NCBI RefSeq assembly: GCF_022846255.1
Contig: NZ_AP025682.1
From: Escherichia coli
Lineage (GTDB): Bacteria > Pseudomonadota > Gammaproteobacteria > Enterobacterales > Enterobacteriaceae
Length of the DNA: 64,000 nucleotides
Strand: one strand, 5' to 3'
How positions within the stretch are numbered: position 1 is the stretch's first letter; every line of letters starts with the position of its first letter. Shown here one piece after another: positions 5,812-35,269 of this stretch. Both the position numbers and the translations under genes were made by a program. The notes under the pieces are model-generated. The model saw only the letters and a program-made list of their open reading frames with translations, was not told where the DNA came from and made no database searches.

Positions 5812-7509
5812 ATGGAACCAAAAACAAAAAAACAGCGTTCGCTTTATATCCCTTACGCTGGCCCTGTATTGCTGGAATTTCCGTTGTTGAATAAAGGCAG
5901 CGCCTTCAGCATGGAAGAACGCCGTAACTTCAACCTGCTGGGGTTACTGCCGGAAGTGGTCGAAACCATCGAAGAACAAGCGGAACGAGCATGGATCCAG
6001 TATCAGGGATTCAAAACCGAAATCGACAAACACATCTACCTGCGTAACATCCAGGACACTAACGAAACCCTCTTCTACCGTCTGGTAAACAATCATCTTG
6101 ATGAGATGATGCCAGTCATTTACACCCCAACCGTCGGCGCAGCCTGTGAGCGTTTTTCTGAGATCTACCGCCGTTCACGCGGTGTGTTTATCTCTTACCA
6201 GAACCGCCACAATATGGACGATATTCTGCAAAACGTACCAAACCATAATATCAAAGTGATTGTGGTGACTGACGGCGAACGTATTCTGGGGCTTGGTGAC
6301 CAGGGCATCGGCGGGATGGGCATTCCGATCGGTAAACTGTCGCTCTATACCGCCTGTGGCGGCATCAGTCCGGCCTATACCCTTCCGGTGGTGCTGGATG
6401 TCGGCACCAACAACCAACAGCTGCTTAACGATCCGCTGTATATGGGCTGGCGTAATCCGCGTATCACTGACGACGAATACTATGAATTCGTTGATGAATT
6501 TATCCAGGCTGTGAAACAACGCTGGCCGGACGTACTGTTGCAGTTTGAAGACTTCGCACAAAAAAATGCGATGCCGTTACTTAACCGCTATCGCAATGAA
6601 ATTTGTTCTTTTAACGATGACATTCAGGGCACCGCGGCGGTAACAGTCGGCACACTGATCGCAGCCAGCCGCGCGGCAGGCGGTCAGTTAAGCGAGAAAA
6701 AAATCGTCTTCCTTGGCGCAGGTTCAGCGGGATGCGGCATTGCCGAAATGATCATCGCCCAGACCCAGCGCGAAGGATTAAGCGAGGAAGCGGCGCGGCA
6801 GAAAGTCTTTATGGTCGATCGCTTTGGCCTGCTGACCGACAAGATGCCGAACCTGCTGCCTTTCCAGACCAAACTGGTGCAGAAGCGCGAAAACCTCATC
6901 GACTGGGATACCGACAGCGATGTGCTGTCACTGCTGGATGTGGTGCGCAATGTAAAACCAGATATTCTGATTGGCGTCTCAGGACAGACCGGACTGTTTA
7001 CGGAAGAGATCATCCGTGAGATGCATAAACACTGTCCGCGTCCGATCGTGATGCCGCTGTCTAACCCGACGTCACGCGTGGAAGCCACACCGCAGGACAT
7101 TATCGCCTGGACCGAAGGTAACGCGCTGGTCGCCACTGGCAGTCCATTTAATCCAGTGGTATGGAAAGATAAAATCTACCCTATCGCCCAGTGTAATAAC
7201 GCCTTTATTTTCCCGGGCATCGGGCTGGGTGTTATTGCTTCCGGCGCGTCACGTATCACCGATGAAATGCTGATGTCGGCAAGTGAAACGCTTGCTCAGT
7301 ATTCGCCGCTGGTCCTGAACGGCGAAGGTCTGGTACTGCCGGAACTGAAAGATATTCAGAAAGTATCCCGCGCAATTGCGTTTGCGGTTGGCAAAATGGC
7401 GCAGCAGCAAGGCGTGGCGGTGAAAACCTCCGCCGAAGCTCTGCAACAGGCCATTGATGATAATTTCTGGCAAGCCGAATACCGCGACTACCGCCGTACC
7501 TCCATCTAA
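5812..7509 (+). CDS. maeA: NAD-dependent malic enzyme
   Basis: 565-aa product beginning [23 protein letters not shown]; the track ORF start at 5785 is an upstream extension. Confidence 0.95.
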
Positions 7510-7642: not shown

Positions 7643-8653
7643 ATGAAGGCTGCAGTTGTTACGAAGGATCATCATGTTGACGTTACGGATAAAACACTGC
7701 GCTCACTGAAACATGGCGAAGCCCTGCTGAAAATGGAGTGTTGTGGTGTATGTCATACCGATCTTCATGTTAAGAATGGCGATTTTGGTGACAAAACCGG
7801 CGTGATTCTGGGACACGAAGGTATTGGTGTGGTGGCAGAAGTTGGCCCTGGTGTTACTTCATTAAAACCAGGCGATCGTGCCAGCGTGGCGTGGTTCTAT
7901 GAAGGATGCGGTCATTGCGAATACTGTAACAGTGGTAACGAAACGCTCTGCCGTTCAGTTAAAAATGCCGGATACAGCGTTGATGGCGGGATGGCGGAAG
8001 AGTGCATCGTGGTCGCCGATTACGCGGTAAAAGTGCCAGATGGTCTGGACTCGGCGGCGGCCAGCAGCATTACCTGTGCGGGGGTCACTACCTACAAAGC
8101 CGTTAAGCTGTCAAAAATTCGTCCAGGACAGTGGATTGCTATCTACGGTCTTGGCGGTCTGGGTAACCTCGCCCTGCAATACGCGAAGAATGTCTTTAAC
8201 GCCAAAGTGATCGCCATTGATGTCAATGATGAACAGTTAAAACTGGCAACCGAAATGGGTGCAGATTTAGCGATTAACTCACGCACCGAAGACGCCGCCA
8301 GAATTGTGCAGGAGAAAGCCGGTGGCGCTCACGCAGCGGTGGTGACAGCGGTAGCTAAAGCTGCGTTTAACTCGGCGGTGGATGCTGTCCGTGCAGGTGG
8401 TCGTGTCGTGGCTGTCGGTCTGCCGCCGGAGTCTATGAGCCTGGACATCCCACGGCTGGTGCTGGATGGTATTGAAGTGGTCGGTTCGCTGGTCGGCACG
8501 CGTCAGGATCTCACCGAAGCCTTCCAGTTTGCCGCCGAAGGCAAAGTGGTGCCGAAAGTCGCCCTGCGTCCGTTAGCGGACATCAACACCATCTTTACCG
8601 AGATGGAAGAAGGCAAAATCCGTGGCCGTATGGTGATTGATTTCCGTCGCTAA
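7643..8653 (+). CDS. adhP: zinc-dependent alcohol dehydrogenase (propanol-preferring)
   Basis: 336-aa product [11 protein letters not shown]... with GHEGIGVV zinc-ADH motif. Confidence 0.95.
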
Positions 8654-16593: not shown

Positions 16594-19500
16594 ATGAGTA
16601 AACTTTTGGATCGCTTTCGCTACTTCAAACAAAAGGGCGAAACCTTTGCCGATGGTCACGGACAGGTGATGCATAGCAACCGCGACTGGGAGGACAGCTA
16701 TCGCCAGCGTTGGCAGTTCGACAAAATCGTGCGTTCCACCCACGGTGTTAACTGTACAGGCTCCTGCAGCTGGAAAATCTACGTTAAAAATGGTCTGGTG
16801 ACCTGGGAAATCCAACAGACCGACTACCCGCGCACTCGCCCTGACCTGCCAAATCATGAACCTCGCGGCTGCCCGCGTGGCGCAAGTTACTCCTGGTATC
16901 TCTACAGCGCTAACCGCCTGAAATACCCGCTCATTCGTAAACGACTGATTGAACTGTGGCGCGAAGCCCTCAAACAACACAGCGATCCGGTACTGGCGTG
17001 GGCATCGATTATGAACGATCCGCAAAAGAGCCTGAGCTACAAACAAGTGCGTGGACGCGGTGGCTTTATCCGCTCCAACTGGCAGGAGCTAAATCAGCTG
17101 ATTGCCGCCGCTAACGTCTGGACCATCAAAACTTACGGCCCGGATCGCGTTGCCGGTTTCTCGCCGATTCCGGCGATGTCGATGGTTTCTTACGCCGCCG
17201 GAACACGCTATCTGTCGTTGTTAGGTGGCACCTGTTTAAGCTTCTACGACTGGTATTGCGACCTGCCGCCCGCCTCGCCGATGACCTGGGGCGAGCAAAC
17301 CGACGTACCGGAATCTGCCGACTGGTATAACTCCAGTTACATCATCGCCTGGGGGTCTAACGTACCGCAGACACGTACGCCGGACGCCCATTTCTTTACC
17401 GAAGTACGCTACAAAGGCACTAAAACCATCGCCATTACCCCTGACTACTCTGAAGTGGCCAAATTGTGCGACCAGTGGCTGGCACCGAAACAAGGCACTG
17501 ATAGTGCCCTGGCAATGGCAATGGGCCATGTCATTTTAAAAGAGTTTCATCTCGATAATCCCAGCGATTATTTTATCAACTACTGCCGCCGCTACAGCGA
17601 CATGCCGATGCTGGTAATGCTGGAACCTCGCGACGACGGCAGCTACGTTCCCGGGCGCATGGTCCGCGCATCTGACCTGGTGGATGGACTGGGCGAAAGC
17701 AATAATCCGCAGTGGAAAACCGTGGCAGTTAATACCGCAGGTGAATTGGTAGTGCCGAACGGTTCGATTGGTTTTCGCTGGGGAGAAAAAGGCAAATGGA
17801 ACCTGGAATCCATTGCCGCCGGTACGGAAACCGAATTGTCGTTAACCCTGCTCGGTCAACATGACGCCGTTGCAGGCGTGGCCTTCCCCTACTTTGGCGG
17901 CATTGAAAATCCACATTTTCGCAGCGTAAAACACAATCCTGTCCTGGTGCGCCAATTGCCCGTTAAAAACCTGACATTAGCCGATGGTAGCACCTGTCCG
18001 GTGGTCAGCGTTTATGATTTGGTACTGGCGAATTACGGCCTCGATCGCGGGCTGGAAGATGAAAACAGCGCGAAAGATTACGCTGAAATCAAACCTTATA
18101 CCCCTGCCTGGGGCGAGCAAATTACCGGCGTTCCGCGCCAGTATATTGAAACCATCGCCCGTGAATTTGCCGATACCGCCCATAAAACGCATGGGCGCTC
18201 GATGATTATTCTCGGCGCAGGTGTTAACCACTGGTATCACATGGACATGAACTACCGCGGGATGATCAATATGCTGATCTTCTGCGGTTGTGTCGGGCAA
18301 AGCGGTGGCGGCTGGGCACACTATGTCGGTCAGGAAAAACTGCGCCCGCAAACCGGCTGGCTGCCTCTGGCCTTTGCGCTCGACTGGAACCGACCACCGC
18401 GCCAGATGAACAGCACCTCGTTTTTCTACAATCACTCCAGCCAGTGGCGCTATGAAAAAGTCACCGCGCAGGAATTGCTCTCACCGCTCGCCGATGCCAG
18501 TAAATACAGCGGTCACCTGATTGATTTCAACGTTCGCGCCGAACGTATGGGCTGGCTACCTTCTGCGCCGCAGCTGGGGCGTAACCCGCTCTCCCTGAAA
18601 GCCGAAGCCGACAAGGCCGGATTGTCACCCGCCGAATTTACCGTCCAGGCACTGAAGTCAGGCGAATTACGCATGGCCTGCGAACAGCCGGACAACGGCA
18701 GCAACCATCCGCGTAACCTGTTTGTCTGGCGTTCAAACCTGCTTGGCTCTTCCGGCAAGGGCCACGAGTATATGCAGAAGTATCTGCTGGGTACGAAAAG
18801 TGGCATTCAGGGGGAAGAACTTGGACCGACGGAGGGAATCCAACCAGAAGAAGTCGAGTGGCAAACTGCGGCGATTGAAGGCAAGCTCGACCTGCTGGTG
18901 ACGCTCGACTTCCGCATGTCCAGTACCTGCCTGTTCTCCGATATCGTTCTGCCCACCGCCACCTGGTACGAAAAAGACGATATGAATACCTCGGATATGC
19001 ATCCATTTATTCATCCGCTTTCTGCGGCGGTCGATCCGGCGTGGGAATCACGCAGCGACTGGGAAATCTACAAAGGTATCGCTAAAGCCTTTTCGCAAGT
19101 GTGCATAGGGCATCTCGGCAAAGAAACCGACGTGGTATTACAACCACTGCTGCATGACTCCCCGGCAGAGCTTTCACAGCCGTGTGAAGTGCTCGACTGG
19201 CGCAAAGGTGAATGCGATCTGATTCCAGGCAAAACCGCGCCGAATATTGTGGCGGTGGAGCGCGACTACCCTGCTACCTATGAACGCTTTACCTCACTCG
19301 GGCCATTGATGGACAAACTTGGCAACGGCGGTAAAGGGATTTCGTGGAATACCCAGGATGAAATTGATTTCCTCGGTAAACTCAATTACACCAAGCGTGA
19401 TGGCCCGGCAAAGGGGCGTCCGCTGATTGACACCGCCATTGACGCATCAGAAGTGATTCTGGCACTGGCACCGGAAACCAACGGCCATGTTGCAGTCAAA

Positions 19501-26441: not shown

Positions 26442-28418
26442 ATGCAGCTTAATCATATCGTTAAAAGTCTGCTAATAACGGGATTATTCACCACCAGTTC
26501 TTTACCTCTCCTCGCGGCGGAAGCTCCTAAAGACGCCACCGCAGCCACGCAACAAGCAAACAATTTACTCTACAACCAGTTGCCGTTTGCCGATAACACT
26601 GACTTTACTGATGCCCATAAAGGTTTTATTGCCCCTATCCCTCAAGACGTGATTAAGGGCGAACAAGGGAATGTTATCTGGGATCCACAACATTACGCTT
26701 TTATCAAAGAAGGCGATAAAGCCCCTGATACGGTGAATCCGAGTTTATGGCGTCAGGCGCAACTGATAAATATCAGCGGGTTATTCGAAGTAACTGAAGG
26801 TGTCTATCAGATTCGCAATCTCGATCTATCAAATATGACCATCATTGAAGGCAAAGAGGGTATTACCGTCGTTGATCCCCTTGTTTCAGCAGAAACAGCC
26901 AAAGTGGGTATGGATCTCTATTACAAAAATCGCGGCAAAAAACCGGTAGTGGCGGTTATCTATACACACAGTCATGTCGATCACTACGGTGGTGTTCGTG
27001 GCGTAATTGATGAAGCTGACGTTAAATCAGGCAAAGTTAAAATCTATGCGCCAGCCGGATTTTTGGAGGAAGCCGTTTCCGAAAACATCATGGCTGGCAA
27101 TGTTATGAGCCGACGAGCCAGTTATATGTATGGCAACTTATTGAAACCTGATGTTAAAGGCCAGGTGGGGGCTGGACTGGGAACGACTACTTCAGCAGGA
27201 ACAGTCACGTTGATTGCTCCTACTAACTACATCACCAAAACCGGACAAATAGAAACTATTGACGGGTTGACTTATGATTTCCTGATGGCGCCAGGTTCTG
27301 AAGCGCCTTCTGAAATGCTGTGGTTTATTGAAGAAAAGAAACTGATCGAAACCGCTGAAGATGTCACGCACACCCTTCATAACACCTATTCGCTGCGTGG
27401 GGCTAAAATTCGCCAACCGCTGCCGTGGTCAAAATATATTAATGAAGCTCTCAATTTGTGGGGTGATAAAGCCGAGATTATTCTCGCTCAACATCACTGG
27501 CCAACCTGGGGCAACGATAACGTGGTCAAACTGCTTAAAAGCCAGCGTGATTTGTATCGTTACATCAATGATCAAACTCTGCGCATGGCTAATCAAGGGA
27601 TGACCCGTGATGAAATTGCCGCAAACTTTAAACTGCCCTCTTCACTGGCTAACACCTGGGCGAATCGCGGCTATTACGGTTCGGTAAGTCATGACGTGAA
27701 AGCAACTTACGTGCTTTATCTCGGCTGGTTTGATGGTAACCCCGCGACGCTTGATGAACTGCCGCCAGAAGAAGGCGCAAAAAAATTCGTCGAGTATATG
27801 GGCGGTGCTGATGCCATTTTACAGAAAGCCAAACAGGATTATGACCAGGGTAATTTCCGCTGGGTTGCCCAAGTTGTTAGTAAGGTGGTGTTTGCCGATC
27901 CAAACAACCAGGCAGCGAGAGATCTGGAAGCTGATGCGCTTGAGCAGTTAGGCTATCAGGCTGAATCTGGGCCGTGGCGTAATTTCTATCTCACTGGTGC
28001 ACAGGAATTGCGTAATGGCGTACAAAAATTACCAACACCAAATACTGCCAGCCCAGACACCGTGCGTGCGATGACGCCGGAGATGTTCTTTGATTATCTT
28101 GCCGTCCATATTAATGGTGAGAAAGCGGCAGATGCCAAAACCGTGTTGAATTTCGATTTTGGTGAAGATGGCGGCACCTATAAAGTGGAGCTTGAAAATG
28201 GTGTTCTCAATCATACCGCTGGTGTAGAGGCTTCGGATGCTGATGCCACTATCACTCTGTCTCGTGATGTATTGAACAAAATTGTACTGAAAGAAGAGAC
28301 GCTGAAAGAAGCCACGGCCAAAGGAGATGTCAAAATTACTGGCAATGCGGAAAAACTCAACGAGCTGTTAGGTTATATGGATAATTTTGAATTTTGGTTC
28401 AATATAGTGACACCATAA
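26442..28418 (+). CDS. secreted alkyl/aryl-sulfatase-like metallo-beta-lactamase-fold hydrolase
   Basis: 658 aa with N-terminal signal peptide (..SLPLLAAEAP) and metal-binding motif HSHVDHYGG; SdsA1/YjcS-like architecture; not at this position in K-12 as I recall. Confidence 0.75.
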   Translation: MQLNHIVKSLLITGLFTTSSLPLLAAEAPKDATAATQQANNLLYNQLPFADNTDFTDAHKGFIAPIPQDVIKGEQGNVIWDPQHYAFIKEGDKAPDTVNPSLWRQAQLINISGLFEVTEGVYQIRNLDLSNMTIIEGKEGITVVDPLVSAETAKVGMDLYYKNRGKKPVVAVIYTHSHVDHYGGVRGVIDEADVKSGKVKIYAPAGFLEEAVSENIMAGNVMSRRASYMYGNLLKPDVKGQVGAGLGTTTSAGTVTLIAPTNYITKTGQIETIDGLTYDFLMAPGSEAPSEMLWFIEEKKLIETAEDVTHTLHNTYSLRGAKIRQPLPWSKYINEALNLWGDKAEIILAQHHWPTWGNDNVVKLLKSQRDLYRYINDQTLRMANQGMTRDEIAANFKLPSSLANTWANRGYYGSVSHDVKATYVLYLGWFDGNPATLDELPPEEGAKKFVEYMGGADAILQKAKQDYDQGNFRWVAQVVSKVVFADPNNQAARDLEADALEQLGYQAESGPWRNFYLTGAQELRNGVQKLPTPNTASPDTVRAMTPEMFFDYLAVHINGEKAADAKTVLNFDFGEDGGTYKVELENGVLNHTAGVEASDADATITLSRDVLNKIVLKEETLKEATAKGDVKITGNAEKLNELLGYMDNFEFWFNIVTP

Positions 28419-28432
28419 ATTTACTGCATACC

Positions 28433-28455
28433 GGGCAGGTATCCTGCCCTTTTTT
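28433..28455 (+). terminator. Rho-independent terminator after the sulfatase gene
   Basis: gggcagg-tat-cctgccc hairpin followed by a T6 run. Confidence 0.6.
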
Positions 28456-28464
28456 GGTTAAAAA

Positions 28465-29562
28465 ATGGCTGAACGAAGAAAAACGCATCACTCATGGAAA
28501 ACCCGCCGCGATATGGTTATTCGCGGCATGACGATTAGTTTGCCATGGTTTGCTTTTATCAATGTCAGTTTTGCATTGATAATTTTGCTGCGCCGTGTTC
28601 TGTTTAATGACCTTACTCCACCCTGGTTAAATGAAAAAAGCCTTATACATTCTATTGATATATCTGCAACGGGTATTCTGCTGATTTGCAGTGGTTTACT
28701 ACTCATCCCTCGGCAAAAAACATTACCTATCCAGGTGCTATTAGTTGCCCTGAGCCTGCTATGGTCATGGTGTAGTTATCACTTTATTGCGTACTGGACG
28801 CTGCAGTTTGCTTATCCACTATGTGTATTATTAATGCTTAGTGGCGTTGTCGCACTTTATTTCCATACCCCATCATTGCTCGCATTTGTCATTCCCTTAT
28901 GGTTCACCACTCCAATAGCGAGTCTTATGCTTAATCAACAGATCAATATTCATTTTGCTGTTGTATGGTGTATTTTTTCACTGGCGCTATATGGTGGGCG
29001 ACTCATTTTGTTACGTTGGTTTGAAGAAGCATGGGTACAAAACAGTTATAACAACCAGTTAATTAATCGCCTTGATGCATTAGCACATCGCGATCCTTTA
29101 ACTGGGATAGCAAACCGACGTGCAATGAACAGTATCTTACACGACGCGATGGATAACGGCGGGTCATTTGCTCTTATTATGCTGGATGTCGATTTTTTTA
29201 AACGTTACAACGACACTTACGGGCATCCTGCTGGGGATCGTTGTCTAATACAAGTTGCCGACGCTCTACAGCGTTCAACTCGCCAGTCGGAGGATGTTGT
29301 TGTCCGTTATGGTGGCGAAGAGTTTGCCATCATACTTTTTAATGCAACATTGCCGGAAGCAGAGACGGTAGCAGCCAGAGTGAAGCAAGAACTTAAACTG
29401 GCAGCTATCCCACATCAGGCATCTGCTGTTAATGCATTCGTTACGGTTAGTCAGGGGATTACCTGTTCTGCTCCCGCAAAAACGGCTGAACAAATTATTT
29501 CAGATGCCGACGCTGCGTTATACCGGGCGAAAGAAAGTGGGCGAAATCGATGGGCTTTATAA
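28465..29562 (+). CDS. membrane-anchored diguanylate cyclase (GGDEF domain)
   Basis: 365 aa: about 190-aa N-terminal region with several predicted TM helices, then GGDEF domain with active-site RYGGEEF; precise start codon uncertain (several in-frame Met). Confidence 0.8.
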   Translation: MAERRKTHHSWKTRRDMVIRGMTISLPWFAFINVSFALIILLRRVLFNDLTPPWLNEKSLIHSIDISATGILLICSGLLLIPRQKTLPIQVLLVALSLLWSWCSYHFIAYWTLQFAYPLCVLLMLSGVVALYFHTPSLLAFVIPLWFTTPIASLMLNQQINIHFAVVWCIFSLALYGGRLILLRWFEEAWVQNSYNNQLINRLDALAHRDPLTGIANRRAMNSILHDAMDNGGSFALIMLDVDFFKRYNDTYGHPAGDRCLIQVADALQRSTRQSEDVVVRYGGEEFAIILFNATLPEAETVAARVKQELKLAAIPHQASAVNAFVTVSQGITCSAPAKTAEQIISDADAALYRAKESGRNRWAL

Positions 29563-29589
29563 GCATTAGGGGACTGGACAGATTACGTC

Positions 29590-30328
29590 TCTCCTCGCTT
29601 AACAAGGGCTGACGGAGGGTAATAATTGTCTATAGCTATCTTCTTAGCGATGTCTTTCTGGTATCACATTGGATCGGTGCAATTATTTTTCCTTTAATAC
29701 CCATTATGTTAAGAAATTCAGAACCAGCTGTAATCTCATTGTTTTTTTCATTCGTCTTGATCTTCCAAGGAATCTGACTGTGCATTATTGAGAACACACT
29801 AATAACGTGAATCGCTCCCTTGCGACGACTCTTGTCATAAGAGTACCGGAGCGTTTTTCCATCAATTGCAATGACGTCTTTATCATCTGAAGAATGGCAG
29901 TCAAGCATCCAGTTAATAAAGCACTCATGAAATTTTTCAGGACTGATACAGGATACAACTCTGGCAATGGTATCGTGAACAGGAATACCATTATCAAAAT
30001 CACCATATTGCTTCAAAAAATCGAGATGTGTTTCCCCAAAATCCTCTATATCTTCCCAGCCTTCTGCACCCGAAATAACGACACAAATAGTCAACAGTAG
30101 AATATCCGATAATTTATGCTCCACTTTCCAGGCTTGTCTGTAATCGGGGATAATAGAAATATGTTCCATCAATTTTTTAAGTTCCATTTTGTTCTCCTTA
30201 ATTATGTAAAGAGTATTTGATCATGTATAAGCAATAAAAAACAGCTTTAGGTAATGAGGAATATCTCAATTTTTAAACATAAAATGCGAATTATTTAGTA
30301 CAAAAAAGCAGCGTTACGTGATCTTTCC
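29590..30328 (-). mobile_element. truncated, diverged ISAs1-family (H-repeat) element copy
   Basis: 183-aa ORF (29636..30187) is similar but not identical to the N-terminal part of the H-repeat transposase at 31727..32554, then diverges; its 5' flank (about 30190..30328) repeats 32560..32695. Confidence 0.6.
29636..30187 (-). pseudogene. ISAs1-family transposase, truncated copy
   Basis: N-terminal about 150 aa align with the second copy, C-terminal tail diverges and terminates early. Confidence 0.65.
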
Positions 30329-30348
30329 ATGGAAAAGAGAGTAATACA

Positions 30349-30364
30349 CTGATTTTTAACGCAG
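30349..30364 (+). promoter_or_regulatory. candidate LexA (SOS) box upstream of the symE-like gene
   Basis: CTG-N10-CAG (ctgatttttaacgcag) with AT-rich spacer about 65 bp upstream of the ATG; deviates from CTGT/ACAG at two conserved positions; K-12 symE is SOS-regulated. Confidence 0.25.
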
Positions 30365-30427
30365 ATTGCCAGTGCTACCAACACTGACAATCTGCTCACC
30401 ACAAGCAACTAACAGAGGTAGTTAATC

Positions 30428-30747
30428 ATGGCTGAACACGATATTACGCCAGAAGTCGCCATTTCCAAAACACAGCGCCGCTATAAAGTCGGCTATGTCA
30501 GAGCCCGCCACATAAACAGCAAACCACGTACTACTCACGACACCCCAGCCTGAACCTTAAGGGCGACTGGCTGAAAGAGGCCGGATTTGATACCGGACGG
30601 GGTGTCACGGTGAAGATTTCGGAGGGGTGCCTGACCATCATCGCTGACAGTGACGAGGTGCAGGAACTGCGGGAGGAACTTTATCAGGTTAAACAGGTGG
30701 TTAAGGGGATGCGGAACGGGATGTTTAGTGTGCTGAACGAGAATTAA
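30428..30747 (+). pseudogene. symE-like type I toxin gene (AbrB-fold), apparently frameshifted
   Basis: 41 codons from ATG 30428 (MAEHDITPEVAISKTQRRYKVGYVRARHINSKP...) end at TGA about 30551; the SymE core LNLKGDWLKEAGFDTGRGVTVKISEGCLTII... continues in the -1 frame to TAA about 30745; restoring one C near 30550 would fuse them. Confidence 0.6.
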
Positions 30748-30797
30748 ATAATAAAAAAGCCGGGGAGATTTAAAATCTTCCCGGCTTTCTTTATCAT

Positions 30798-31100
30798 CTA
30801 AAAAGGTAATAATCCTCTAATAGGAGAAAATTTTGTAATATCAATACCTTGTAATTTAAAGTAATTAAAAGCATCTTCTATATTGGAAAACGCACTAATT
30901 TCTTCAGTTGCATAATCTTCGAACACTTCCATTTTATTTTCTGGTATTTTGAAAAAATAGGTATTGTATTTTTCATCCTGTTTTTTAATGGCATATTGGA
31001 AAAAATAACTTTCACCATTTATTTCCTTTATCTCATCAAAACCTCTAACCTTACCATTCTCTATAGCAACAATTAATTTTTCAATAGACAAATCAACCAT
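30798..31100 (-). CDS. putative immunity protein for the upstream toxin-like ORF
   Basis: 100-aa acidic, low-GC ORF; its ATG overlaps the stop of the upstream ORF (ATGgtTGA), the usual toxin-immunity arrangement; no sequence family recognised. Confidence 0.45.
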   Translation of the reverse strand: MVDLSIEKLIVAIENGKVRGFDEIKEINGESYFFQYAIKKQDEKYNTYFFKIPENKMEVFEDYATEEISAFSNIEDAFNYFKLQGIDITKFSPIRGLLPF

Positions 31101-31440
31101 CTATATCTATCCTCACCATTGTCCCATCAGAACGTTTAATATTTATATGAGGCAAAGAACCATGCCCTGTGCCTTTATGGTCATCATGACCATATACACG
31201 ACCAGTATTAGAATCAATAGGGTAATCTTTCCTATAACGGACAGTACCATCTCTTTTCTTAAATTGTTCCATCTTATGTTTTTTTCTAATACCGGCGGCA
31301 TCCTGCGAACTGATCCCTCTTACTTTTTGAGCATCAGGAAAGGCCTCCATCAATAAATCATGGGCTTCCTGTTTTGATTTAACTGTGACAACGGTTCCTT
31401 GAGGCCCCAGGGCAAGATTACGAAAGCCCGCTCCCCGCAA
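31093..31440 (-). CDS. putative orphan polymorphic-toxin C-terminal domain (3' fragment of an IS-disrupted gene)
   Basis: Track ORF begins inside the ISAs1 end with a TTG; first ATG gives [10 protein letters not shown]... (about 31350); C-terminal His-rich motif [21 protein letters not shown] is reminiscent of HNH/beta-beta-alpha-Me nuclease toxins; low GC. Confidence 0.4.
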
Positions 31441-32695
31441 GGACTGACGCCAGATAGTTTCTGTCCATGGCTGCTTTTCGCATCTTACGTCTTAACCCTG
31501 CCTTGAATACCTTATCATTCGTCAAAATATTAATAGCGATGTGCCGTATCCCTGAAAATAATTCTGCTGCATTTCCTCTTCTTATTTTGCAGTCGTCTTC
31601 ATTCATTACCACGTCCAGACGCCAGTGCAGCTTATTCTCCACGTGCCAGTGGTTTCGGATTGCTGTGGCGAACTTCTCTGCGGTTAAATCAGCAGAACTG
31701 ATATAATATCTGACCGTCATTTCTGGCTATTTCTTTTGTTCTGCTATTATGGACCGAAAGGAGACTGCCACGCATAATTTCTTCAGTCCTTTCCATTCAA
31801 ACGTGAAATCAATAAGTTCATCAGGGACATCGCAAACAATATGAAGACGGATTTCTTCTCTGCCGTGACTTTTTTCACTAATTGCGTAACTGTCATGCTC
31901 TGGATTATTCAATTCTTTCAGCGGAAATTTTTCCTCGAAGGCTTTATTTAGCCGCCCCTGGTTTCCTTTTACAGCGAATAAATAATCACCTCCCTGTTTT
32001 TGTATCTTCTCTGCAATATCTTTCTGGCAACCCATCGCATCAGTTGTGATGATTTTTCCTTTAATATCCAGCATGTTAAGAAGTTCAGGGATAGCTGTAA
32101 TTTCATTGGATTTCTCATCCGTCCTGATCTGTCCGATGACCAGACTGTGCATTGTTGAGAACGCACTAATGACATGAATCGCTCCCCTGCGGCGACTCTT
32201 GTCATAAGAATGTCGGAGCGTTTTTCCATCAATTGCAATAACGTCTTTATCATCTGAAGAATGGCAGTCACGCATCCAGTTAATAAAGCACTCGTGAAAT
32301 TTTGCAGGACTGATACAGGATACAACTCTGGCAATGGTATCGTGAACAGGAATACCATTTTCAAAATCACCATATTGCTTCAAAAAATCGAGATGTGTTT
32401 CCCCAAAACCCTCTATATCTTCCCAGCCTTCTGCACCAGAAATAACGGCACAAATAGTCAACAGTAGAATATCCGATAATTTATGTTCCACTTTCCAGGC
32501 TTGTCTGTAATCGGGGATAATAGAAATATGTTCCATCAATTTTTTAAGTACCATTTTGTTCTCCTTAATTATGTAAGGAGTATTTGATCATGTATAAGCA
32601 ATAAAAAACAGCTTCAGGTAATAAGGAATATCTCAATTTTTAAACATAAAATGCGAATTATTTAGTACAAAAAAGCAGCGTTACGTGATCTTTCC
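31400..32695 (-). mobile_element. ISAs1-family (H-repeat) insertion sequence
   Basis: Transposase reading frame of about 379 codons (31418..32554) with the [26 protein letters not shown]-terminal signature; upstream boundary set where the two copies' flanks diverge (after ...gtgatctttcc). Confidence 0.7.
31418..32554 (-). pseudogene. ISAs1-family transposase, split by a frameshift near 31720-31727
   Basis: 275-aa N-terminal ORF (31727..32554) and 100-aa C-terminal ORF (31418..31720) are contiguous in different frames. Confidence 0.7.
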
Positions 32696-32871
32696 CTGGT
32701 TATCGCTGTTCTTTCCCCTTGACCAGGCAAATATTTTTCATTATGGATCCATACCTTGCTATAATCAATTGTATTCTCAAAAATCGATCTGGCCAATGTT
32801 AATTCACCAGATGTCATTCTCCTTAATGACATATCCTTTCCCCTGGAAATAATATCTTTCAGATAAAACAC
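32662..32871 (-). pseudogene. 5' fragment of a gene truncated by the ISAs1 insertion; N-terminus resembles DUF4157-type domains
   Basis: 69-aa ORF whose last about 12 codons are encoded by IS-end sequence; motif LARSIFENTIDYSKVWIH resembles the E..fG.DfS.VRVH N-terminal signature of DUF4157 (a recollection, not verified). Confidence 0.35.
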
Positions 32872-33769
32872 AAACGCTCTTTGATGTTCAACATTCCCAC
32901 TTTATACAGTATTGATGGCATCATCTTCATAGAAAATGAAATCAAAGCAAGTTATCAACGTTTCCCATTACGATTTCTTAACATTAATTCTCAGCATTTT
33001 TATTAATCTATTTTCAATATCAATAACCGATGCAAATGATTACGCAGTTAACATAATCCTTATCAATTGATTAATATCTGTAAACGCTACCGCCCCACCC
33101 TGATATCTTAATCTGCACATAGCAATCTTAACGTTATGCCCCATACATTAGTAATGTAAATTAAGAATTCGGAATATATCAAATTCACTTCATAAATTAA
33201 TATCGGGAATGATATACACATTAATTATATTGAAGTAATGGTTTAAGAGTTGTAATGACCATGGAACAGGACTAATTCCAGAAACTCCTGTTGGGCAATA
33301 GCGCGTTTATCATCCTACATGCCTCTTACATTTTTTAGCCTTTTCTTTAACGTCAGCAATTGGCTCATTTAATCAGCAATGGTATTGGTATTTGGCGTAT
33401 TACCCCTGAAACCCGTCATGTGCTAGCACCTCACTATTCAATGAGCCAACCACGCCAGTGTCCACTGCAACCACTGGCGTTCAGAGCGACGAACGAGTGG
33501 CGCAAGAGTAGGACTGCCGTCGGGCATCATCAAACCAATAGTTGTTGTTTCCGTCAAAATTTCATCAGGTTGCTATTTGGTTGCCGGCCGCCTTTATCCC
33601 CACATATTTATAGCGGGATTATTTTGCATCGTTACACGATAAAAGGTAGGATTCTGCGCCGACAGTTATACCCATAAAGAATAATGGTGAATCTTGTCAT
33701 CGCCAGGATGAATAAACATTGTTCATGGCAACTTATATGACTTTTTCATTAAAGCAATCAGGGAGAGCA

Positions 33770-35269
33770 ATGAGTAAACACGACACCGACACTTCAGATC
33801 AACACGCCGCGAAACGCCGCTGGCTTAATGCCCACGAAGAGGGGTATCACAAAGCGATGGGCAATCGCCAGGTACAGATGATCGCCATTGGCGGCGCGAT
33901 TGGCACCGGCTTGTTTTTAGGTGCAGGAGCCCGACTGCAAATGGCGGGGCCAGCACTGGCACTGGTCTATTTAATCTGCGGCCTGTTTTCATTTTTTATT
34001 CTGCGTGCATTGGGTGAGCTGGTGCTACACCGCCCTTCCAGTGGCAGTTTTGTCTCTTATGCCCGTGAGTTTTTAGGAGAGAAAGCCGCTTACGTTGCAG
34101 GCTGGATGTACTTCATCAACTGGGCGATGACGGGGATTGTCGATATTACCGCCGTCGCTCTGTATATGCATTACTGGGGTGCGTTTGGCGGCGTGCCGCA
34201 GTGGGTCTTTGCGCTCGCTGCGCTGACCATCGTTGGTACCATGAATATGATTGGTGTGAAATGGTTTGCGGAGATGGAGTTCTGGTTTGCGCTTATTAAA
34301 GTGCTCGCCATCGTGACCTTTTTGGTCGTGGGTACAGTGTTCCTCGGTAGCGGTCAGCCGCTGGATGGCAACGCCACTGGCTTTCATTTAATTACCGATA
34401 ACGGCGGCTTTTTCCCCCACGGTTTGCTGCCTGCGCTGGTGTTGATTCAGGGCGTAGTGTTTGCTTTTGCCTCCATTGAAATGGTGGGTACAGCGGCCGG
34501 AGAATGTAAAGATCCGCAGACCATGGTGCCTAAAGCGATTAACAGTGTGATTTGGCGTATTGGTCTGTTTTACGTCGGCTCCGTGGTGTTGCTGGTTATG
34601 TTATTGCCGTGGAGCGCGTATCAGGCGGGGCAAAGTCCGTTCGTGACGTTTTTCTCTAAACTGGGTGTGCCATATATCGGCAGCATTATGAACATTGTGG
34701 TGCTGACCGCTGCCCTCTCCAGCCTGAATTCAGGTCTGTACTGCACCGGGCGTATTCTGCGCTCGATGGCGATGGGCGGTTCCGCACCGAGTTTTATGGC
34801 GAAAATGAGTCGTCAGCATGTGCCGTATGCCGGGATTCTGGCGACACTGGTTGTGTATGTCGTCGGCGTATTCCTCAACTATCTGGTGCCGTCGCGCGTA
34901 TTTGAGATTGTGTTGAACTTCGCGTCGCTGGGAATCATCGCTTCATGGGCGTTTATCATCGTGTGCCAGATGCGCCTGCGTAAAGCGATTAAAGAAGGCA
35001 AAGCAGCGGATGTCAGTTTTAAACTGCCTGGCGCGCCCTTCACTTCCTGGCTGACATTACTGTTTTTACTGAGTGTCCTTGTGCTGATGGCGTTCGATTA
35101 CCCGAACGGGACTTATACTATCGCGGCGCTGCCGTTTATCGGTATTCTGCTGGTTATAGGCTGGTTTGGTGTGCGCAAACGCGTTGCTGAAATTCACAGC
35201 ACTGCGCCAGTCGTCGAGGAAGATGAAGAACAACAGGAAATTGTGTTTAAGCCTGAAACGGCGAGTTAA
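33770..35269 (+). CDS. ansP: L-asparagine permease (APC family)
   Basis: 499-aa product beginning MSKHDTDTSDQHAAKRRWLNAHEEGYHK; track ORF starts upstream at 33719. Confidence 0.95.
   Translation: MSKHDTDTSDQHAAKRRWLNAHEEGYHKAMGNRQVQMIAIGGAIGTGLFLGAGARLQMAGPALALVYLICGLFSFFILRALGELVLHRPSSGSFVSYAREFLGEKAAYVAGWMYFINWAMTGIVDITAVALYMHYWGAFGGVPQWVFALAALTIVGTMNMIGVKWFAEMEFWFALIKVLAIVTFLVVGTVFLGSGQPLDGNATGFHLITDNGGFFPHGLLPALVLIQGVVFAFASIEMVGTAAGECKDPQTMVPKAINSVIWRIGLFYVGSVVLLVMLLPWSAYQAGQSPFVTFFSKLGVPYIGSIMNIVVLTAALSSLNSGLYCTGRILRSMAMGGSAPSFMAKMSRQHVPYAGILATLVVYVVGVFLNYLVPSRVFEIVLNFASLGIIASWAFIIVCQMRLRKAIKEGKAADVSFKLPGAPFTSWLTLLFLLSVLVLMAFDYPNGTYTIAALPFIGILLVIGWFGVRKRVAEIHSTAPVVEEDEEQQEIVFKPETAS

Follow-up and report, generated by a model that had tools for sequence, protein, structure and literature searches.

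A 64,000-nucleotide stretch of Escherichia coli DNA (RefSeq assembly GCF_022846255.1, contig NZ_AP025682.1; referred to here as the window) contains on its minus strand a 69-amino-acid (aa) open reading frame (ORF), an insertion sequence (IS) of the ISAs1 family, a 115-aa ORF, and an acidic 100-aa ORF, in that order (Table 1). These elements lie at the position occupied by rhsE in E. coli K-12, between ansP and pptA. A preliminary description of the sequence had assigned them to the variable rhs/H-repeat locus of K-12, which we confirm, and had read them as a single toxin gene split by the ISAs1 element and followed by an immunity gene. We find instead that the sequences on the two sides of the IS belong to two different genes, and that the locus is very probably the remnant of a decayed type VI secretion system (T6SS) Rhs island, a kind of locus that is already known. 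The coordinates that had been given for the ORFs, and the overlap between the stop codon of the 115-aa ORF and the start codon of the 100-aa ORF (ATGgtTGA), are correct, and the low GC content that had been claimed is borne out (26% for the 100-aa ORF and 40% for the toxin piece vs 50% for the window). An ISAs1 element does lie between the ORFs, but its boundaries are moved from 31400–32695 to 31407–32699.

BLAST comparison with E. coli strain 104 (locus L002) revealed that positions 29501–31408 of the window are collinear, at 99% identity, with positions 7865–9782 of L002, and that positions 32698–32873 of the window match positions 17607–17782. The sequences on either side of the window IS therefore sit 7.8 kb apart in strain 104, in two separate genes, and because the flanks map to such distant positions the IS stands in place of 7.8 kb of DNA. 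In strain 104 this interval comprises the 3′ part of a 531-bp gene (annotated there as "type IV secretion protein Rhs"), a 357-bp gene, vgrG, a DcrB-related (Eag/DUF1795-type) gene, and a 4.4-kb rhs gene. The intact order found in other strains is ansP, a gene for a 176-aa HExxH protein, a lipoprotein immunity gene, vgrG, eag (encoding the DcrB/DUF1795 chaperone), a PAAR-Rhs gene ending in a C-terminal toxin of ~116 aa, the 100-aa immunity gene, and symE.

These findings bear directly on the proposal that simple insertion of ISAs1 split one pre-toxin gene that ran from a DUF4157/zincin N-terminus to an HNH-like nuclease at its C-terminus, in which case excision of the IS would rejoin the pieces into one ORF. 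The three pieces are indeed adjacent and all on the minus strand, and the N-terminal fragment resembles the start of an HExxH zincin, the intact homologue of which contains an HEMMH motif. However, in strain 104 and in the other intact loci examined the two flanks belong to two genes with four between them, and strain A31, in which the IS simply inserted at the site that it occupies in the window, retains both halves of the HExxH gene, one on each side of the IS, and the 3′ half is not the toxin. Moreover, no target-site duplication was found in the sequences flanking the window IS, and Pfam yielded no DUF4157 or HNH match. As judged from these sequence comparisons the split-gene proposal is refuted, and we regard it as almost certainly wrong.

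Strain A31 carries a second ISAs1 copy inside its eag (DcrB-related) gene, and recombination between two copies placed as in A31 would yield just the single-IS structure seen in strain C10. Read in this way from their sequences, the A31/C10 pair is a worked precedent for the deletion proposed for the window. Positions 31407–33800 of the window are collinear with C10 across the IS, the HExxH stub and the ansP intergenic region, and the same 129-bp truncated HExxH fragment is annotated in C10 and A31. Because the window and C10 are collinear here and A31 has the IS at the same site, the insertion into the HExxH gene is shared by descent. The toxin-side junction of the window is unique in the genome collection, and no other complete E. 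coli genome in the collection searched was found to have the same IS/toxin arrangement. Together, these comparisons establish the history of the locus and the identities of its genes.

In the mechanism we propose, the ISAs1/ISEc1 element would first have inserted after codon 43 of the HExxH gene, and a deletion of 7.8 kb would then have joined it to codon 13 of the Rhs toxin domain. The loss might have occurred by insertion of a second IS copy at the GPQG codons of the toxin domain followed by recombination with the first copy, or by an IS-adjacent deletion; the lack of a target-site duplication is expected under either route. The leftovers would be a dead HExxH stub, a defective IS, the tail of the toxin, and a complete immunity gene.

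Table 1. Features of the rhsE-type locus in the window and of its flanks (positions are those of the window).
Feature	Position	Strand	Remarks
Alkyl/aryl-sulfatase gene (658 aa) and GGDEF diguanylate cyclase gene	26442–29562	+	pptA side of the rhs islet
Second ISAs1 copy	29636–30306	-	partial and degenerate; 5′ half only
symE-family gene	30428–30757	+	frameshifted; placed by alignment with the strain 104 gene
GC-rich inverted repeat, terminator-like hairpin	30753–30791		between the convergent immunity ORF and symE-like gene
100-aa acidic ORF	30798–31100	-	predicted cognate immunity protein; intact
Toxin-domain remnant	31093–31406	-	last 104 codons and stop (GPQGTVV...DIDG-stop)
115-aa ORF	31093–31440	-	TTG start
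ISAs1-family (ISEc1-like, "H-repeat") IS	31407–32699	-	terminal inverted repeats and ends shared with relatives
69-aa ORF	32662–32871	-	GTG start
HExxH-gene 5′ stub	32700–32832	-	43 codons (MSLRRM...GERTA)
ansP	33719–35269		flank of the locus; yncE on the same side

The ISAs1 element is bounded by imperfect terminal inverted repeats (CCAGGG[A/C]AAGAT[C/T]ACG). Its ends read CCAGGGAAAGATCACG... and ...CGTAATCTTGCCCTGG, and the end sequence TCTTGCCCTGG is common to the K-12 ydcC element and strain C10. The sequence at the junction with the toxin piece is CCCTGGGGCCTCAAGG, within which the exact position of the boundary is ambiguous inside a GGGG run (31405–31408). RefSeq annotates matching DNA (up to 100% identity) as an "ISAs1-like element ISEc1 family transposase". 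In the window the transposase gene (31418–32554, minus strand) contains an in-frame TAG at 31727–31729 that leaves ORFs of 275 and 100 aa in place of an intact transposase ORF (about 378 aa in K-12 YdcC), and the element is probably immobile. For the IS at this site in strains C10 and A31, too, the annotation records a frameshift or an internal stop. A second, partial ISAs1 copy, 88–92% identical to the full copy, lies between the GGDEF gene and symE; this copy is older than the deletion because it is common to strains 104 and MEI003.

On the other side of the IS, the first 11 codons of the 115-aa ORF (including the TTG at 31440) are IS sequence and only 104 codons are derived from the toxin. 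These 104 codons correspond to residues 13–116 of a domain of ~116 aa and are 99% identical to strain 104 (L002, up to 9782). In strains A37 and GF130 the domain lies in frame after an Rhs core end of the form PxxxxDPxGL and terminates with DIDG and a stop codon, and a core end directly before the domain is also present in a Kosakonia locus (L006) and in four further homologues (P0004, P0007, P0010 and P0056). In the window, the GPQG codons are preceded by the end of ISAs1. All rhs core, PAAR, eag and vgrG sequence has gone, and with the Rhs body the remnant has lost its DPxGL cleavage motif and residues 1–12 of the domain. Of 5426 complete E. coli genomes, 87 contain the DNA for toxin plus immunity gene (611 bp), each with one copy on the chromosome, and every copy whose surroundings were inspected lies at this same locus. 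In strain MEI003 the module closes an rhs array as a classic orphan and keeps ~35 codons of core homology. The term "orphan module" that had been applied to the window copy is only loosely apt, as this copy is the truncated 3′ end of a main rhs gene and true orphans are found in MEI003 and Kosakonia.

In the rhs gene of strain 104 (at about 9860–9880 of L002) an extra G in the run of Gs after DPIGLAGG breaks the frame before the toxin domain; MEI003 has one G fewer in that run and is in frame. A sequencing error, a decay mutation or a slippage-prone tract could each account for the extra G. (An 85-aa ORF 3′ of the strain 104 rhs gene was considered as the immunity gene of the main Rhs protein and rejected, as it is the toxin's own C-terminus after the +1 G frameshift.) The window allele of the toxin has DDHKG where most relatives have DDPKG, and has a serine in GIGSQD where close homologues keep a glycine. 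The His-rich motif noted at the end of the ORF is present, but is in part specific to this allele.

We next consider the evidence that toxin and immunity ORF form a pair. A word-indexed search for homologues of the toxin returned 20 close clusters, several of them fused to Rhs core ends and one from Pseudomonas fluorescens. A profile search of 1.84 billion representatives (cut-off E ≤ 1e-3) returned 104 relatives of the toxin domain, and all 104, the longest of them 2052 aa, have the domain at their very C-terminal end. The scaffolds that carry it include Rhs/YD-shell and PT-HINT proteins among others, and extend to other phyla. Structural neighbours in AFDB50 were uncharacterised Rhs, Hint and, more weakly, pre-toxin-TG C-termini (from Salmonella, E. 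marmotae, Vibrio, Snodgrassella, Paenibacillus, Treponema and Desulfonema), from which no function could be transferred. The immunity family comprises 36 homologue clusters from Enterobacterales and Pseudomonas (P. entomophila among the sources), nearly all of them exactly 100 aa long and highly conserved. The families differ sharply in charge: the median isoelectric point (pI) is 9.7 for the toxins and 4.95 for the immunity proteins family-wide, and 4.6 for the 100-aa ORF of the window.

The two families are also linked in the genome. The immunity ORF follows the toxin directly, with the same 8-nt overlap, on a metagenome contig (L005) and in Kosakonia (Enterobacter sp. FY-07; L006/L007), where the pair forms one cassette of an orphan array 3′ of a VgrG-DcrB-PAAR-Rhs locus and adjoins Tox-HNH-EHHH/Imm50 and Tox-ART-HYD1 cassettes. 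(That array, at 6600–15300 of L006/L007, consists of orphan cassettes that include DUF4329, the toxin family of the window, a Barstar-like ORF, Tox-HNH-EHHH/Imm50 and Tox-ART-HYD1, together with several small ORFs without a Pfam match.) In addition, the ORFs that follow two distant toxins, carried by an Rhs protein and by the 2052-aa PT-HINT protein (L014 and L016), match the immunity profile with E values of 6e-12 and 2e-11. One toxin subfamily (P0109) has an unrelated ORF downstream; immunity ORFs that differ between toxin subfamilies are usual for polymorphic toxins. These searches establish the family membership of both proteins and the linkage between them. The location of the domain at the C-terminus after the Rhs core end, and the co-inheritance of the downstream ORF across taxa, support the earlier prediction, made from sequence, that the two genes constitute a toxin/immunity pair.

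Neither protein belongs to a family with a name, as had also been surmised. No Pfam match was obtained for the toxin remnant (E ≤ 10), the immunity ORF, 41 members of the toxin family or the members of the immunity alignment; NCBIfam yielded no match for either protein; and sequence searches of the PDB returned only noise for the toxin (as a single sequence and as a profile) and for the immunity ORF. A literature search by the RefSeq accessions of the toxin and immunity proteins found no paper. The toxin domain and the immunity family are thus uncatalogued, although the kind of locus that surrounds them is already known.

To model the toxin domain we used AlphaFold with an alignment of 41 sequences. 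The resulting model (predicted local distance difference test score 93.9, predicted template modelling score 0.86) contains helices at residues 5–12, 24–34 and 51–61 and strands at residues 18–21, 69–73, 99–103 and 109–114. Residues P36, K40, G43, D73, Y74, H94, H99, I100, N101 and G107 are conserved family-wide, G13 is nearly invariant, and H86 is found in most members; a conserved G-x-G-[S/P] turn follows helix 2. The top structural matches were generic βαβββ modules of glyoxalase/bleomycin-resistance proteins. A further match, to the CdiA-CT structure 5T86, was weak, with a score well below that of a confident fold match; 5T86 is treated as a BECR-fold ribonuclease (RNase)-type toxin in a 2026 preprint (bioRxiv 10.64898/2026.05.10.723254).

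The suggestion that the toxin is an HNH-like nuclease is not supported. No HNH family profile matched the protein in Pfam or NCBIfam, or any of the 41 family members in Pfam, and no HNH or colicin-DNase structure was present among the structural matches. Furthermore, the model has no ββα finger, and no helix comes after its His-containing segment. The toxin would appear rather to be a small, very basic enzyme domain that acts in the cytoplasm. On the basis of its size, its charge, the conservation of His, Lys, Asp and Tyr residues, and the weak match to 5T86, we tentatively suggest that it is a metal-independent, BECR-like RNase rather than an HNH DNase.

The G-x-G-[S/P] turn raises another possibility, namely that the domain is a nucleotidyltransferase or RelA/SpoT-like enzyme (or other non-nuclease enzyme) that modifies or synthesises nucleotides, as we take this conserved turn to resemble the hG[GS] motif of Pol-beta-like nucleotidyltransferases. 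However, the domain is only ~115 aa long and has one invariant acidic residue (D73) instead of the carboxylate pair or triad of that superfamily. The scores, moreover, are near noise, and there is no match in Pfam or among PDB sequences. We therefore think such an activity unlikely.

The 69-aa ORF on the far side of the IS belongs to a different gene. The intact 531-bp gene of strain 104 encodes a protein of 176 aa that starts MSLRRMTSGELTLARSIFENTIDYSKVWIH and has HEMMH at residues 82–86. The window keeps only the first 43 codons of this gene (32832–32704), and the 69-aa ORF consists of this stub together with 13 upstream codons, beginning at the GTG, and a tail read from the IS. In strain 104 (L003 3315–4198) the HExxH gene overlaps by 4 nt a 357-bp gene at its 3′ side that encodes a 118-aa lipoprotein with an LSGC lipobox. 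This lipoprotein matches NCBIfam NF045617 ("putative T6SS immunity periplasmic lipoprotein") with an E value of 2e-7 and 30.9 bits, which is below the curated cut-off of 43. From sequence the two genes look like an uncharacterised periplasmic metallopeptidase effector/immunity pair, and the 69-aa fragment is the stub of such a separate, probably periplasm-acting effector with its own immunity gene.

The HExxH family comprises 139 clusters in Enterobacterales. No precomputed Pfam domain was present among the 120 clusters listed, and an NCBIfam search of the HExxH protein gave no match. The N-terminus of the fragment had been likened to DUF4157-type domains. The intact 176-aa protein has an N-terminal region followed by HExxHxxQ, a layout that we presume resembles that of DUF4157 (PF13699). 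However, Pfam yielded no DUF4157 match for the intact protein, the only hit being DUF6782 at an E value of 0.3, and the window fragment ends at residue 43, before the HExxH motif. The assignment of the fragment to DUF4157 is thus abandoned, and the absence of a Pfam match likewise sets its 176-aa relative apart from the DUF4157/eCIS-core zincins.

The immunity ORF has a GAGGA Shine–Dalgarno-like site 9 nt upstream of its ATG, inside the 3′ end of the toxin, and ends at a strong terminator-like hairpin. The toxin tail has no delivery domain, autoproteolytic core end, first helix (including G13) or native start codon. Judged from these features, an orphan immunity gene accompanied by dead fragments is the most likely reading of the window copy. 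The immunity protein would bind and block toxin injected by neighbours with an active Rhs protein; we infer this immunity function, together with the cytoplasmic target and the RNase chemistry of the toxin.

Alternatively, the remnant might be a working intracellular toxin–antitoxin (TA)-like pair, expressed by readout from the IS or from an internal promoter and held in check by the immunity protein. The modelled domain has lost no more than its first helix, the ORF runs into the IS with a TTG start, and the IS transposase gene is read in the same direction as the remnant; there is also a precedent in the orphan Rhs modules of Salmonella, described in PMC7043789 as type II TA-like. Yet neither the TTG at 31440 nor the internal ATG (Met31) is preceded by a Shine–Dalgarno sequence, and no suitably placed sigma-70-like site was found on the minus strand. 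In addition, the lost segment holds the nearly invariant Gly13 and a confidently modelled helix, and the neighbours in the islet are decaying: the transposase gene has a stop, and the symE-family type I toxin gene has, relative to the intact 330-bp gene of strain 104 (320/330 identities), a 10-bp deletion that shifts the frame and leaves pieces of 41 and 45 aa in the ORF list. We consider a functioning TA-like pair improbable, and favor an orphan immunity gene in the remnant of a decayed Rhs island.

Several points weigh against this interpretation. A single genome is compatible with either order of events, recombination between two IS copies or adjacent deletion. Of the rhs ORFs in the E. coli copies that we examined, one alone is annotated as unbroken, and it is itself a deletion derivative without the core end. 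The others are frameshifted, have no N-terminus, or are orphans; the threat that the immunity gene would meet may thus be rare in E. coli. The remnant, which we take to be wholly inactive as a toxin, keeps 104 of ~116 residues. Finally, toxicity, protection and expression of the window genes are predictions made from sequence.

At the edges of the locus, the sulfatase and GGDEF genes are common to strains 104 and MEI003 and are absent from the K-12 locus, and among the best-covered complete E. coli genomes listed, none exceeds 98.4% identity to the window over the ansP-yncE-pqqU flank.

Our analysis corrects the annotation of this locus, which becomes a decayed T6SS Rhs island in which only the orphan immunity gene is likely to matter, and illustrates how ISAs1 (H-repeat) elements can erase effector islands yet spare immunity genes. 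It also draws attention to a compact toxin domain and its dedicated immunity family, which are well conserved and absent from Pfam, NCBIfam and the PDB. Because the pair is uncatalogued and conserved, and because the toxin model is of high confidence, it should be an easy target for biochemistry, for which the in-frame C-terminal domain (CT) of A37 and GF130 and the orphan module of Kosakonia are intact templates.

Of the toxins with which the window toxin might be compared, the HNH/ββα-metal toxins (Tox-HNH-EHHH, Tox-GHH, Tox-SHH and colicin DNases) share with it the presence of several histidines near the C-terminus, but differ in the profile matches, ββα finger and structural matches that the window toxin lacks. 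With the BECR-fold RNase toxins (CdiA-CT 5T86 and Salmonella Rhs2-SciX) it has no sequence-level similarity, and the immunity family is unrelated to theirs by sequence. The closest parallels are the Rhs CT/RhsI modules, including orphans, described by Poole et al. 2011 (PMC3150448) and Koskiniemi et al. 2014 (PMC3967940) for E. coli, Dickeya and Salmonella. As in those modules, a variable C-terminal domain follows the PxxxxDPxGL core end in the Rhs relatives of the window toxin, a small immunity ORF lies directly downstream and overlaps the toxin stop codon, both genes are low in GC, and the locus is associated with H-repeat/ISAs1 elements, a link that has long been known for rhs loci. The MEI003 and Kosakonia copies also keep the short core homology of Rhs orphans, whereas the window copy has no core homology, which would prevent it from rejoining a main rhs gene by homologous recombination, and is cut inside the toxin domain at the IS junction. 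A further difference is that the toxin and immunity families of the window are themselves unnamed.

At the level of the whole locus, the intact versions have the same architecture as the vgrGO1-eagR(DUF1795)-PAAR-Rhs-CT islands of E. coli (Ma et al. 2017, summarised in PMC6730261), all of whose delivery genes are deleted in the window. That summary lists the toxin activities metalloprotease, REase-3 and Toxin_55 RNase together with an "unknown" clan, to which the window CT would belong because it has no Pfam domain. The K-12 locus rhsE-ydcD-yncI/ydcC (H-repeat) occupies the same ansP–pptA site and likewise combines a decayed rhs gene with ISAs1-family elements. It differs in its CT/immunity pair (ydcD) and in having yncG and yncH where the window has the HExxH stub, and the window, like strain 104, adds the sulfatase and GGDEF genes on the pptA side.

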